Shown here piece by piece: positions 3,589 to 48,100 of a stretch of DNA of 64,000 bases. The stretch comes from a phage. The DNA lies in sequence record OZ335959.1. One strand, written 5' to 3'. Under the pieces are notes generated by a model. It saw nothing but the letters and a program-made list of their open reading frames with translations, made no database searches and was not told where the DNA came from. The position numbers were made by a program, and so were the translations under genes. Each line of letters opens with the position of its first letter. Position 1 is the first letter of the stretch.

Positions 3589-3924
3589 TCACTTATAAAG
3601 ACACGGAATAGCTTTATAGTGACAGGTAACGAATTTTTGTTTAATTTCTTTTGGCTGCTTAAGGCCCAGAGCTACAAAAGGATGCGGAACGTTTCGAATT
3701 TGACCAACTGGAAGAGAAGTCAAATCACCAACTTCACAGAAACCTTCAGGAACATCAGGACCAACAGAGTGAACTACACACAGTTCAGGAACTTCACCTT
3801 GAACACGTTTACCGATAATAAGTCCTGATTCTGTAACTTCTTCATCACCAGCCTGTGCAGGTTCAGAAACTAAAATAACATATTCACCGACAGCACGAAT
3901 TGGTAGCTGTTGTACTTCAGACAT
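3589..3924 (-). CDS. 31: gp31 co-chaperonin (GroES analogue)
   Basis: 111-aa ORF, size and position between rIII and cd match T4 gp31 as I recall it. Confidence 0.85.
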
Positions 3925-43434: not shown

Positions 43435-43470
43435 ATTAATTATACCACATCCTTGTGGTAAAGTAAACTA
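43435..43470 (-). promoter_or_regulatory. early promoter module (-35 GTTTAC 43463-43468)
   Basis: Conserved module overlapping 3' end of gene 39. Confidence 0.45.
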
Positions 43471-45288
43471 TTGGCTCATCCATTCTTTACGAAGGTCAGC
43501 ATTATCTCCCATGAGCATTTCAAAAAGCTCTTTCCAGTTCTCAGGAAGTTTAACAACATCATATACTGGGTTTTGAATCATCTCACGATATTCAGATTTT
43601 TCCAAAGAGCCAAGTCCCTTAATATAACGGATGCTATGTTTAGGTAGAGCATCTTTGGCACTCTCATATTCAGCGACTGTATAAAACCATTCTTGTTTTT
43701 TACCGACCTGAGCGATGATTACAGGAGTTTTGACGAAGCGAATTCTTCCTTGTTCAAACAGTTCTGGCCAATTGCTAAAAAATCCGAGCAGAGAAGGATA
43801 AATGCTTCCTAGACCATCATGGTCAGCATCGGTCATAATAGCAATATTATGATAATTCAAGTTTTCAGCTTTTTCACCAAGAACTAATCCAGTGATTGCG
43901 CAAATATCAAACAGTTCTTTGTTTTTAAGCATATCGGCATAAGACATACCCCAGCTATTAAGAACTTTACCACGCAATGGATAACCACCATGAAGTTCTT
44001 TATCACGAACATCAATAAGATATCCGATAGCAGAATCACCCTCAGTCAAGAAAAGAGTAGTGTCAGCGTCTTTACCGCAAAGATTCGCTTTAATATGTTT
44101 ATGAACCTTAGCTTTAGAAGCCTTTTTAGCTGCTTTAGTTTCAGCTGCTTTTTCTGCAGCCAATTTACGAGCCAAAGCAGCTTCAATAATTGGCATTAAA
44201 ATTGCTTCATTATTTAAAATAGCACGTGAAATCTTTTTAGCATCAAGCTGAATATGACTACGAATTTCACCAAATGGAGAAGTCAAACGCTCTTTAGTCT
44301 GAGAATCAAATCGCATGTTTTTCATATCACGAACAAACATAACGATAGTCAAACATTCTTTAACACGTGCTTTAGTTACATCAATTTTGAACTTGCGTTT
44401 GATTTGTGGAATAAGGTCTTCACAAATATCATCCATAACGCAGTCAATGTGATGGCCACCATTCTTAGTATGAATGTTATTAACGTATGTTAATTGACGA
44501 AAACCATCAGGTGAACGACCAACCGCAATAGAACAATTTTCTTGTTCTTGAACAATAGCATGCTCATCATATTGGCGTGCATATTTCTTAAAATTACCCT
44601 GAACCTTTTTACCATTAAAGGTAAATTGAATATCAGGATAAACTACTGCAAGTGTCTGGAGACGATCCAGTGTAATGTCAAGATAAACTTGAGACAGCTC
44701 ATTAGTTTCAAATGACATAAAATCAGGAATGAAAGTAACACGAGTTCCTTTCCATTTTCCGGGAATATCTTCCCATGATTTATTTTCCATGCCATTTGAA
44801 CAACGAACTACAATATTATTTTGACCGTCGCCAGTTTCACCGACAAACATCACAGAAAAAATGTTAGTTAAACTAGAACCAACACCGTTCATACCGCCAG
44901 TGACGCGTTCTTTATCATCGCCGAAGTTACCACCTGCTTTTGGAATAGTCCAAGCAGCAACAGGACCAGGAATTTCTTCACCAGTAGGTGTTTTAACCAT
45001 CGCTTGTGGAATACCGCGACCGTTATCTTCAACTGTTACCTGATTATTTTTAATGGTAACATTAATTTTATTTGCGAATTTAAACTTAGTACGAATACCT
45101 TCATCTACTGAGTTATCGATAATTTCATCAATAAGCTTAACAAGACCAGGTACATACTGAACACTTTCCCATTTACCAAACAGAAAGCGCTCATGCATTT
45201 CATTAGCGGAAGAGCCAATGTACATGCCGCTACGCTTTTTGATATGTTCAATATCGCTCAGAATTTTAATTTCATTCTTAATCATCAC
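43468..45288 (-). CDS. 39: DNA topoisomerase II large (ATPase) subunit, single unsplit polypeptide (T4 gp39 + gp60 equivalent)
   Basis: 606-aa continuous ORF with GyrB-like ATPase and TOPRIM regions; no internal stop or bypass gap. Confidence 0.92.
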   Translation of the reverse strand: MMIKNEIKILSDIEHIKKRSGMYIGSSANEMHERFLFGKWESVQYVPGLVKLIDEIIDNSVDEGIRTKFKFANKINVTIKNNQVTVEDNGRGIPQAMVKTPTGEEIPGPVAAWTIPKAGGNFGDDKERVTGGMNGVGSSLTNIFSVMFVGETGDGQNNIVVRCSNGMENKSWEDIPGKWKGTRVTFIPDFMSFETNELSQVYLDITLDRLQTLAVVYPDIQFTFNGKKVQGNFKKYARQYDEHAIVQEQENCSIAVGRSPDGFRQLTYVNNIHTKNGGHHIDCVMDDICEDLIPQIKRKFKIDVTKARVKECLTIVMFVRDMKNMRFDSQTKERLTSPFGEIRSHIQLDAKKISRAILNNEAILMPIIEAALARKLAAEKAAETKAAKKASKAKVHKHIKANLCGKDADTTLFLTEGDSAIGYLIDVRDKELHGGYPLRGKVLNSWGMSYADMLKNKELFDICAITGLVLGEKAENLNYHNIAIMTDADHDGLGSIYPSLLGFFSNWPELFEQGRIRFVKTPVIIAQVGKKQEWFYTVAEYESAKDALPKHSIRYIKGLGSLEKSEYREMIQNPVYDVVKLPENWKELFEMLMGDNADLRKEWMSQ

Positions 45289-45354
45289 TTATCCTCGTTT
45301 GGTTTCGGGAATATTATACTCCGGTAATCATAAAGCTAAAGGCCCGAAGGCCTT

Positions 45355-45627
45355 TTATTTAAAACGGATAGTCGAATCCTTGAAGAATAGACCAGAACAT
45401 ACGGTTCCTTCTACTTTCTGCCCGGTAGGTCCAATAGCACGAAATCCAGTATGTTGGAAATCATTTTCAGAGCAACCGAACCAGTTATATCCAGTGATTT
45501 CAATATTAGTAAAACCACTTGAAGACAAAACTTTGGTTGCATTATCAGCATCAGTACATCCTGCTAAAGACACTGCTAATACTAATGCTGCGATAGAACG
45601 ATTAATATATTTCATAATTTCACTCAA
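45355..45627 (-). CDS. lipoprotein (90 aa)
   Basis: Signal peptide with lipobox LAGC. Confidence 0.55.
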   Translation of the reverse strand: MSEIMKYINRSIAALVLAVSLAGCTDADNATKVLSSSGFTNIEITGYNWFGCSENDFQHTGFRAIGPTGQKVEGTVCSGLFFKDSTIRFK

Positions 45628-45991
45628 ATTTAATGGCTTGAAGAAGACTAATAATTCTCAAGCGACTTCTTTCATCTTTAACCGTAAATGAAAGAGGGTC
45701 ACCAGATTTCATAGTGATAGTGCATTCAAAATCAAAATCTTCGGGAACTTCTTCGAAGAAGTCAAATTCTTCATCATATATTAGAACATTACTCTGAAAA
45801 CTGTGAAGAATTTTTCCATCATTTCCAGATGCTGTACTAATCATTGTAACGTTATTACCTTTCATATCTTCAACGATAAATTCGCTTGTAGATATTACGG
45901 CATTAATAGAACCATTCCTATAAATAGCAGAAAATAGATATTTCTTTTCTTCACCTTCACGAACACGATATTTCTTACCGATTTTAAACAT
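45620..45991 (-). CDS. hypothetical protein (123 aa from ATG; track used GTG at 45997)
   Basis: ORF. Confidence 0.5.
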   Translation of the reverse strand: MFKIGKKYRVREGEEKKYLFSAIYRNGSINAVISTSEFIVEDMKGNNVTMISTASGNDGKILHSFQSNVLIYDEEFDFFEEVPEDFDFECTITMKSGDPLSFTVKDERSRLRIISLLQAIKFE

Positions 45992-45993
45992 AA

Positions 45994-46170
45994 TCACCCT
46001 TTAAGTAAGTCGTAAAATCCACCATTCACATGCTTAGGAGCAGAAGGCCGACGAGTAGACAGACGATGACATTTAGGACAAACATCATTTTCTCGTTCAG
46101 AAATCTTTTTAATTTTTTCATATTCATGCCCGCAATCTTCGGATTGGCATTTATAATCATACATTGGCAT
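45994..46170 (-). CDS. FmdB-like zinc-ribbon protein (58 aa)
   Basis: Hand-translated MPMYDYKCQSEDCGHEYEKIKKISERENDVCPKCHRLSTRRPSAPKHVNGGFYDLLKG; two CxxC pairs; below track cut-off. Confidence 0.45.
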   Translation of the reverse strand: MPMYDYKCQSEDCGHEYEKIKKISERENDVCPKCHRLSTRRPSAPKHVNGGFYDLLKG

Positions 46171-46172
46171 AA

Positions 46173-46592
46173 TTATTCCTTAAAGTGTGCTTTCAACATC
46201 TGATACAAGGACCATGCCTGTTCATTATTTTCAATAGTAACTTTCATGATAGGAAATTCTGTGAAATCTTCTATTTGTTCTTGCTCTTCCTGCTCTTGCT
46301 CTTCAGATGCCTGATATGGATTTTCAACTTCATCAAAGAACCCAGCTTCGTTAGTAGAGAGCCAGATAAAGTTTTCGTCAAGGATATCACCATGTGTTGC
46401 ATATCCAACTGTGCCAGTAGATGTCACAATTTTAGTAGGACGACCAAGATGGTCAACATCTAAAATTTTAAAAGGATGCATACCTAAACGACGTGCATAG
46501 ATTCCGTTATCAGTATGGTCTTTAATAAAATTTTCTTGAGCTTGTTTATTTTTAAATTGATACCATTTATTAACTTCAAATTTAATAGCCAT
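46173..46592 (-). CDS. hypothetical protein (139 aa; position of T4 goF)
   Basis: ORF with acidic EQEQEEQEQ tract. Confidence 0.5.
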
Positions 46593-46807
46593 TAATAAAT
46601 TTCCTTCCAGTAAGTTGTACCGTCTTCAGTGATTTCACGGAATACACCGTAAATTGGCTGTTTATCACCAACATTTTCATACACATAAACCGAAGTCAAG
46701 TGAGTAAACTTAACGGTATGTTCCTTTTGAACTACTACCAAATCTGGATCGAATAATACATCTTCAAATTCGTCATTAGTGCATTTCTGAACAGTTTTAC
46801 GTTTCAT
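46592..46807 (-). CDS. hypothetical protein (71 aa; position of T4 cef)
   Basis: ORF, 1-nt overlap with downstream gene. Confidence 0.5.
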
Positions 46808-46983: not shown

Positions 46984-47481
46984 TTATGCACAGCGGGCTT
47001 TGCTATAGTGTTTAATCCAACTTTCGGGAATGACTTTGTATGTTCCTAAAAATACAGCATTGTACAACTTAACACCATCTTCTACCCACTGATCAGTAAT
47101 GTATGCACACATAGCGCGAGTACGGTGTTTTTGAACAACCCCTTCCTCATCTTCAGTAAATTCGAATTCATAAGGAGCAACGAACTTAATAGCTTGACCG
47201 AGTTTCCACTTAAAGTCTACACCTACGTGCGAAGTATCAATCGTTTCAATTCCTTTAGCAGGAACAGCTTTCAAAAACGCAGACTCAAGAAATTTCGCAC
47301 GAACATAGCCAAACTGAGGTTTAGACTTTCCATCTTTAGGAATGATACGCACTTTTACTTCAGAATCTTCATCTTTAACGCCGTGTTTAAGCTGAATGCT
47401 TACAATTTCAACCAATTTTCCTGCTGCTTTAGAACGGGATTTATCAGATACACGAGCAATTTCACCAATATTAATAATCAT
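46984..47481 (-). CDS. hypothetical protein (165 aa; MotB-like by position), paralog of the next ORF
   Basis: C-terminal motif ITDQWVEDGVKLYNAV shared with ORF 47558-48100. Confidence 0.5.
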   Translation of the reverse strand: MIINIGEIARVSDKSRSKAAGKLVEIVSIQLKHGVKDEDSEVKVRIIPKDGKSKPQFGYVRAKFLESAFLKAVPAKGIETIDTSHVGVDFKWKLGQAIKFVAPYEFEFTEDEEGVVQKHRTRAMCAYITDQWVEDGVKLYNAVFLGTYKVIPESWIKHYSKARCA

Positions 47482-47523: not shown

Positions 47524-47558
47524 CCATTATACTCTGGTCCCAAGAGTTTGTAAACTAT
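47524..47558 (-). promoter_or_regulatory. early promoter module (-35 GTTTAC 47550-47555)
   Basis: Conserved module. Confidence 0.45.
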
Positions 47559-48100
47559 TAATTCAAAATAGCTACCACCGCACTACGGGGTACTACACTA
47601 AAATCACCTGCATGAACAACGTTCAGAAGTTCAACACCATCTTCAATCCATTGGTCTGTTACCCAACCACAGACCGAAATAAATGGGGTCTTAATAGCTA
47701 CAGCACGAGTTAGAAGGTCAGTAGGATCGCATTCTTGGAAGAGGATAAGCTCTGCTTCAAAGACTATAGTTTTAATTACTTCATCATTATCTAAGCGTTG
47801 TGCTCGAATCACATAAGCTTTATTCTTATCATACCAATTACTTTTTGAAAAACTTTTAACCACAAACTCGCCTTCACCAAAAACACTAGTCAATGCTTTA
47901 TAACCCAAACTTAGTTCAGTAGTTTTAATTTCAGTTTCAACCAGTTTGTAGATTTTGCCAATTTCAATGGTCCGAGCAGTCATAAAGGTTTCCTTAATTT
48001 CCAGTGGTTTAACAGGGCATACATAAGTGCTTACAACATCAAAATCAATCAGTTTAGCTACCGGATTTGGAGTGTATTCAGGATTATAATTAAATTTCAT
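47558..48100 (-). CDS. hypothetical protein (180 aa), paralog of the previous ORF
   Basis: C-terminal motif VTDQWIEDGVELLNVV. Confidence 0.5.
   Translation of the reverse strand: MKFNYNPEYTPNPVAKLIDFDVVSTYVCPVKPLEIKETFMTARTIEIGKIYKLVETEIKTTELSLGYKALTSVFGEGEFVVKSFSKSNWYDKNKAYVIRAQRLDNDEVIKTIVFEAELILFQECDPTDLLTRAVAIKTPFISVCGWVTDQWIEDGVELLNVVHAGDFSVVPRSAVVAILN

Follow-up and report, generated by a model that had tools for sequence, protein, structure and literature searches.

The DNA analyzed here, hereafter referred to as the window, is a 64,000-nucleotide stretch from a phage (sequence record OZ335959.1). Reading of the sequence together with the ORF listing revealed a minus-strand ORF (Table 1) of 58 codons plus TGA, with its ATG at positions 46170-46168 and its stop codon at positions 45996-45994; its translation is MPMYDYKCQSEDCGHEYEKIKKISERENDVCPKCHRLSTRRPSAPKHVNGGFYDLLKG. 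The TAA stop codon of the upstream gene goF (46175-46173) ends 2 nt before this ATG, and the TGA is followed, again after 2 nt, by the ATG (45991) of the downstream ORF. Because only 2 nt separate the ORF from either neighbor, it fills the gap between the flanking genes exactly. These results agree with the first-pass annotation, which had described a 58-aa minus-strand ORF that occupies this gap completely and falls below the cut-off of the ORF track; both its coordinates and its translation were reproduced, and its length is below a cut-off of 60 aa. The same annotation had called the ORF unannotated, which is accurate for its own ORF track but not for public databases, where many phage records carry an annotation for the identical protein. 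The Shine–Dalgarno sequence of the ORF overlaps the last codons of goF, which suggests that the two genes are probably translationally coupled. A purine-rich element of the Shine–Dalgarno type was found at the same place in T4, RB69, Bp7, U115, TG1, and Makalu_003.

The ORF, identified below as gene 39.2, lies within a packed minus-strand unit with the order cef, goF, 39.2, 123-aa ORF, and 39.1. No Pfam match was obtained for the 123-aa ORF. We found it in PP01 and U115 but not in T4 or fPS-90, and therefore consider it a variable insert; RB69 has a different ORF of 140 aa at this place. The interval between 39.2 and 39.1 is thus an indel hotspot beside a conserved small gene. Gene 39.1 starts with a signal peptide of the lipoprotein type (MKYINRSIAALVLAVSLAGC...; ...LAVSLAGC), and in an omics study of T4 its transcript was early and its protein late. 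The hairpin directly after 39.1 is probably the terminator of the unit, judging from its sequence, although a consensus terminator scan did not call it. A candidate early promoter, from which the unit with 39.2 may be transcribed, was recognized by its match to the consensus, and the number of such promoter-like matches in the region was not above the shuffled expectation.

Several features surrounding this unit were also observed. The 39.1 hairpin is closely followed, in front of gene 39, by TAGCTTTA-N12-TATAAT (45311..45340, minus strand), which resembles a T4 MotA-dependent middle promoter; the fPS-90 annotation predicts a middle promoter at the equivalent site. A single ORF of 606 aa (43468..45288, minus strand) encodes the topoisomerase II large subunit, unsplit as in RB69 and PP01, whereas the T4 gene is divided between 39 and 60, with a mobA insertion. 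Two minus-strand ORFs, 46984..47481 (165 aa) and 47558..48100 (180 aa), share similar C-terminal segments (...ITDQWVEDGVKLYNAVFLGTYKVIPESWI vs ...VTDQWIEDGVELLNVVHAGDFSVVPRSAV) and look like tandem paralogs in the motB region.

Table 1. Coordinates of the features in the window and of the regions used for comparison in other phages.
Feature	Coordinates	Strand	Basis
Gene 39.2 (nwgI) CDS	45994..46170	-	ORF, translation, HMM matches, identical PP01 protein
Shine–Dalgarno sequence AAGGA	46177..46181	-	Sequence; 6 nt before the 39.2 ATG, overlaps the last goF codons
goF (comC-alpha), 139-aa ORF	46173..46592	-	Annotated at the same relative position in PP01 and T4
cef	46592..46807	-	Pfam T4_Cef, E 8.6e-35; upstream of goF, same early transcription unit
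123-aa ORF	45620..45991	-	Between 39.2 and 39.1
Gene 39.1, 86-aa predicted lipoprotein, last of the unit	45355..45615	-	Aligns with 39.1 of re-sequenced T4
Hairpin AAAGGCC-TTCG-GGCCTTT (probable terminator)	45338..45355	-	Sequence, directly after 39.1; fPS-90 equivalent annotated as terminator
Candidate early sigma-70-like promoter TTTACA-17-TATAAT	47526..47554	-	Consensus match only (11/12 matches)
Gene 31 (phage co-chaperonin Gp31)	3592..3924	-	tblastn; non-adjacent functional partner by inference
T4 39.2, compared regions	NC_000866 5702-5839 (L002:2703-2840) vs MT984581 (L015:661-837)		
Zinc ribbon and groES pair, fENko-Kae01 (ENKO_297/298)	L012:1501-1994		
Zinc ribbon and groES pair, fHe-Yen9-04	L014:1501-2017		
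Zinc ribbon and groES pair, 121Q (gp614/gp615)	L105:1501-2008		

To establish the identity of the ORF, its surroundings and its product were compared with public phage genomes. The 1.6 kb around it is 95-98% identical at the DNA level to many Tequatrovirus (T4-like) genomes, and the window is a genome of this kind. Phage PP01 encodes an identical 58-aa protein annotated as '39.2: gp39.2 hypothetical protein', in the order goF, 39.2, 123-aa ORF, and then 39.1 and topoisomerase gene 39. The ORF of the window holds the corresponding position: it follows cef-goF and precedes 39.1 and gene 39, all on the same strand. Tequatrovirus, Mosigvirus (including RB69), Dhakavirus, Tegunavirus, and Krischvirus all have 39.2 in this slot directly before gene 39, with varying small ORFs around it; the homologs in Vequintavirinae have a different genomic context. 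A tblastn search with the window protein gave matches in 886 phage records, 216 of them at 99% identity or more, and in 852 of the 886 the match covered at least 80% of the protein. PHROG 1076 also matches the protein. We conclude that the ORF is the T-even phage gene 39.2 (NwgI), which is already known and named and is not a new gene. Other public records of the same gene carry the names 'FmdB-like transcriptional regulator' and 'zinc ribbon domain(-containing) protein'.

The window protein is 81% identical to Gp39.2 of re-sequenced T4 (MT984581; 58/58 residues) and 93% identical to the RB69 protein over 57 residues. T4 Gp39.2 has the same length, the same C-x4-C and C-x2-C ligands, and an identical C-terminal segment, SAPKHVNGGFYDLLKG; the 11 of 58 residues that differ lie mostly around the two knuckles and at residues 38-42. 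Its gene occupies the same slot, between goF and 39.1/gene 39, but T4 is without the 123-aa ORF that the window phage has between 39.2 and 39.1. The Mosigvirus homolog, RB69 ORF006c (RB69p006), also has goF and cef as neighbors; it encodes 59 aa, with one extra C-terminal residue compared with the window protein, and the gene downstream is the 140-aa ORF, 39.1 being absent. Two allele classes of 39.2 were observed in Tequatrovirus, a window/PP01/AR1 type and a T4/fPS-90/U115 type. With 93% identity, the former is nearer to the Mosigvirus RB69 than to the latter (79-81%), which suggests, from sequence comparison, that this small gene has been exchanged between genera.

In the T4 RefSeq entry NC_000866 and the 1992 record M89919, 39.2 encodes 45 aa, the form listed in UniProt as Q01434 ('Uncharacterized 5.1 kDa protein'). 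Two re-sequenced T4 genomes (MT984581 and HM137666, the latter being T4T) are identical to each other in the 39.2 stretch, whereas their identity to NC_000866/AF158101/M89919 is 95.9% over 341 bp, with several substitutions and with one base deleted relative to the reference, i.e., a 1-nt insertion in the reference. In the re-sequenced genomes, Gp39.2 is a 58-aa protein, MPLYDYKCQSKDCAKEYEKIKKISERDTDVCPDCHRLAVRLVSAPKHVNGGFYDLLKG, and 39.1 is an intact 86-aa lipoprotein, the signal peptide of which is likewise broken in the reference sequence. Because the re-sequenced T4 gives 58 aa, matching the 58-aa peptide that Georgopoulos mentions for T4 39.2 (PMC5153855), we attribute the 45-aa entry to errors of the old sequence. 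The truncated RefSeq/UniProt entry can hide the 39.2 protein from proteomics searches. In Table S2 of PMC9697503, the T4 39.2 transcript is classed as early, which agrees with the placement of the ORF in an early region by the first-pass annotation, and the protein is listed as undetected in the proteome (Class_P = NA). That gene table has 39.2 at the truncated RefSeq coordinates, under Q01434 (the 45-aa form); therefore, the correct 58-aa sequence may have escaped the search. As a separate observation, four deposited 39.2 proteins (P0005, P0007, P0033, and P0053) are frame-shifted chimeras with an alternative frame (...NVIVCLLVGLLLLSM, or MIINVN... at the start), probably owing to homopolymer sequencing errors in those assemblies.

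We then evaluated whether 39.2 is under selection as a protein. Pairwise Nei-Gojobori comparison of six Tevenvirinae alleles gave dN/dS values of 0.02-0.16, with dS from 0.13 up to saturation. In all seven phages compared, the 39.2 frame was the sole frame open over the full length, and an SD-like element preceded the ATG in each. Two ORFs overlapping it in the window, one of 44 aa (46026..46160, minus strand) and one of 57 aa (46030..46203, plus strand), are not kept open in relatives and were rejected. Among the homologs in Straboviridae and Vequintavirinae, residues M1, P2, Y4, Y6, C8, R26, C31, C34, A44, P45, and G51 are invariant. On this sequence evidence, we regard 39.2 as a genuine small protein-coding gene.

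The protein matches Pfam PF09723 (Zn_ribbon_8) with 45.7 bits (E 6.7e-12; curated cut-off, 34.4 bits) and NCBIfam TIGR02605 (FmdB family, CxxC_CxxC_SSSS) with 44.9 bits (curated cut-off, 31.3 bits), which bears out the assignment of an FmdB-like zinc ribbon made in the first-pass annotation; no other Pfam or NCBIfam domain, Cpn10 included, scored above cut-off. The zinc ribbon spans residues 1-41, with C8, C13, C31, and C34 as predicted ligands, and is followed by the conserved tail. The knuckles are C8-QSED-C13 and C31-PK-C34, so the description of two CxxC pairs holds for the second only, the first being C-x4-C. That assignment had been said to depend on the retention of the cysteines in related phages; since almost every full-length member retains four potential metal ligands, it stands. 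Ligand spacing differs between groups: Tevenvirinae have C-x4-C, Krischvirus has C-x2-H, and Vequintavirinae have C-x2-C plus C-x-C. Thus, the protein has four Cys that are conserved in Tevenvirinae but deviates from the canonical FmdB spacing. Like 39.2, FmdB family proteins have an N-terminal MPxYxYxC, two knuckles approximately 17 residues apart, and a SAP..G[FYW][YF] motif after the zinc ribbon. However, their first knuckle is usually C-x2-C, and they carry a long low-complexity Ser/Lys/Pro tail that 39.2 lacks; bacterial members have no known function. In 80 viral FmdB-like loci, the first knuckle was C-x2-C in 52 and C-x4-C in 12. The C-x4-C spacing was considered as a unique marker of chaperonin-linked members and was discarded, as an unrelated environmental group (MPRYDYKCRNENCGK...) has the same spacing.

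An AF2 model built from a 47-sequence alignment predicted a four-stranded zinc ribbon (strands 3-8, 16-20, 28-30, and 37-40), with pLDDT values of 80-83 for residues 1-40 and 49-59 for the C-terminal tail. The best BFVD matches of this model were T4 Q01434 and FmdB-family phage proteins. A PDB sequence search with 39.2 returned only a chance match to bL31 (E 0.78), and a Foldseek search against the PDB gave nothing below E 0.78, the matches being generic zinc ribbons (RbpA, the MCM N-terminal zinc site, S27e, and aRF1). The tail is conserved and resembles the SAP..KG.G[WF]Y.TDY motif of bacterial FmdB proteins. That a segment modeled with low confidence is nevertheless conserved and FmdB-like suggests that it may serve as a flexible interaction motif.

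The function of 39.2 has been studied experimentally in T4. PMC5153855, written by the senior author of the work of Ang & Georgopoulos 2012, describes T4 39.2, whose function had previously been completely unknown, as subtly modulating GroES/GroEL. Both genetics and biochemistry suggest, according to this account, that Gp39.2 shifts GroEL towards an 'open' form able to bind host and phage GroES-type co-chaperones, and certain groEL mutant hosts completely block a T4 phage deleted for 39.2 but not its parent. PMC4396842 gives the same account of this work (Ang & Georgopoulos, 2012, Genetics 190:989). Our description of the GroEL mechanism is taken chiefly from these two secondary accounts; in the other papers examined that mention 39.2, it is cited or appears in a gene table. 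In the original study, the gene was reportedly first isolated from RB69 in a GroEL selection, and the homologs of T4, RB43, and RB49 are said to behave alike. Its expression reportedly relieves temperature sensitivity in groEL and groES mutants, over-production is said to be lethal, and the effects are said to be allele-specific.

The phage co-chaperonin gene is present in the window as well. The product of gene 31, which lies approximately 42 kb from 39.2, is identical (100% over 111 aa, tblastn) to a T4 Gp31 sequence. Gp31 and GroES (Pfam Cpn10) act on GroEL, as is reported for 39.2, and secure the folding of phage proteins. However, they have no sequence or fold relationship to 39.2, a 6.6-kDa zinc ribbon, and 39.2 is reported to modulate GroEL rather than to cap it.

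The weakest tblastn matches of 39.2 were to jumbo phages. In fENko-Kae01 (Klebsiella) and fHe-Yen9-04 (Yersinia), the gene for a 67-69-aa Zn_ribbon_8 protein, which passes the cut-off of that family, immediately precedes a Cpn10/GroES gene (Pfam, 66.6 bits). To determine how widespread this arrangement is, tblastn was run with both proteins fused, and a pair was defined as one place covering at least 80% of the fusion on one strand. Both genes were adjacent in 73 of the 81 matching records, which span the Rak2-like jumbo phages infecting Klebsiella, Escherichia (121Q, PBECO4), Salmonella, Cronobacter, Pectobacterium, Serratia, Erwinia, Yersinia, and Xanthomonas, and the adjacency persists while protein identity drops to 50-60%, although it stems from one broad lineage. 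The jumbo-phage zinc ribbon is 53% identical to window 39.2 over residues 1-36 and has the same C-x4-C knuckle (KCQNEECEH vs KCQSEDCGH in the window), so that a KCQxE[ED]C.H knuckle and a KI.KIS.R motif are common to both. Its C-terminal half differs (...FRFKGNWFNTTGRY) and is nearer to bacterial FmdB proteins. Moreover, its gene adjoins Cpn10, whereas Gp31 is encoded at a distance in T-even phages. Some records mis-annotate this zinc ribbon as a 'type I antifreeze protein'. Our literature search for the groES/zinc-ribbon pairing found no mention of it.

To assess the scope of this association, 80 other viral FmdB-like loci were collected from IMG/VR with a 9-sequence alignment. None of the 80 had a Cpn10 gene within 5 kb, and therefore the groES link does not extend to FmdB-like genes in general. 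Two bacterial FmdB neighborhoods contained neither groES nor groEL, one FmdB gene preceding the gene for an aspartyl-tRNA synthetase and the other lying beside a rhomboid gene; a sample of two is too small to exclude a broad chaperonin hypothesis but gives it no support. Together, these gene neighborhoods support a link between zinc ribbon and chaperonin for the 39.2-like subgroup, not for the FmdB family as a whole.

We next weighed what the product of 39.2 might otherwise be. That the ORF is a chance reading frame or a decaying pseudogene without function could be argued from its length of only 58 aa, the 45-aa version in T4 RefSeq, and the few frame-shifted database entries. However, the truncation is absent from the re-sequenced T4 genomes, the gene is under strong purifying selection and spread over the phage records matched by tblastn, mostly at nearly full length, and its product passes curated Pfam and NCBIfam HMM cut-offs; on the strength of the spread, the re-sequencing, and the selection, we exclude this explanation, to which we assign a negligible probability. 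A role as a transcription factor, or as a zinc ribbon binding nucleic acid or RNA polymerase, is the function that the first-pass annotation had suggested. The name 'FmdB-like transcriptional regulator' in RefSeq and PHROG annotations points in this direction, as does the location of 39.2 among modulators of transcription and RNA metabolism (motB, goF, and cef), and RbpA and RNA-polymerase subunits are among the top Foldseek matches in the PDB. These matches, however, are weak and non-significant (E ≥ 0.78) and reflect the generic zinc-ribbon fold, and neither a recognizable DNA-binding domain nor significant similarity to a known regulator was found in Pfam, NCBIfam, the PDB, or Foldseek. The label 'regulator' of the FmdB family is not known to go back to more than a conjecture from a single operon, and our literature search on FmdB function found no paper supporting it. 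Furthermore, the related jumbo-phage genes adjoin groES and not transcription genes, and the only experimental work known for this gene, as described in PMC5153855 and PMC4396842, gives it a chaperonin phenotype and assigns it to GroEL/GroES modulation. We consequently regard a transcriptional role as unsupported and improbable, and the product name as probably misleading for 39.2. Overall, the earlier observation was partly confirmed and its interpretation partly supported.

A closer competitor accepts 39.2 as a real gene but holds that it influences GroEL indirectly, or as one effect among several, for example through another host protein or through GroESL raised via the heat-shock response. 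The suppression phenotypes are genetic, and the SAP..G[FYW][YF] tail is common to bacterial FmdB proteins without a nearby chaperonin gene, which suggests an older family function that is not GroEL-specific. On the other side, the jumbo-phage operon link to groES argues for a direct connection, as do the reportedly allele-specific effects. Genetic and biochemical studies, as related in PMC5153855, point to a conformational shift of GroEL itself. Accordingly, we consider an indirect effect unlikely, if somewhat less so than a transcriptional role. The explanation that we hold to be very probably correct as a whole is that the ORF is the 39.2 (nwgI) ortholog, encoding a zinc-ribbon protein that modulates GroEL, a function assigned by orthology.

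By sequence, window 39.2 encodes a cytoplasmic protein of 58 residues that consists of a single FmdB-type zinc ribbon, with C8, C13, C31, and C34 on its two beta-hairpin knuckles, and a short, conserved, and probably flexible C-terminal tail (SAP..GGFYD). We infer that the zinc site is structural and that the tail is the likeliest contact surface. As the T4 literature describes for Gp39.2, the target would be the host GroEL tetradecamer, whose equilibrium would be moved towards the open conformation that binds GroES or Gp31; by orthology, the window protein is expected to act on GroEL in the same way. Phage proteins that need GroEL/Gp31 for folding, for instance the major capsid protein, could thereby still be folded on hosts in which GroEL and the co-chaperonin interact poorly, and we therefore propose that 39.2 is a non-essential host-range or fitness factor.

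A broader model may also be envisaged, which we consider speculative and put forward with considerable doubt. In this model, 39.2-type zinc ribbons would be dedicated and widespread phage chaperonin modulators working with the phage co-chaperonin, and the jumbo-phage pair would be a two-part co-chaperonin system. The glycine-aromatic tail (GGFYD; KGNWF in jumbo phages) would be the motif that touches GroEL, perhaps as a mimic of the GroES mobile loop, and, by extension, the cellular FmdB family might act on chaperonins.

The finding itself is an ordinary one, as this T-even gene had already been named and studied by experiment, and many public genomes carry its annotation. Its practical consequence is that the annotation of 39.2 should follow the published function as a GroEL modulator. 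The pairing of zinc ribbon and groES in jumbo phages provides inexpensive, independent support for the link to chaperonins and offers a second system in which the mechanism may be worked out.
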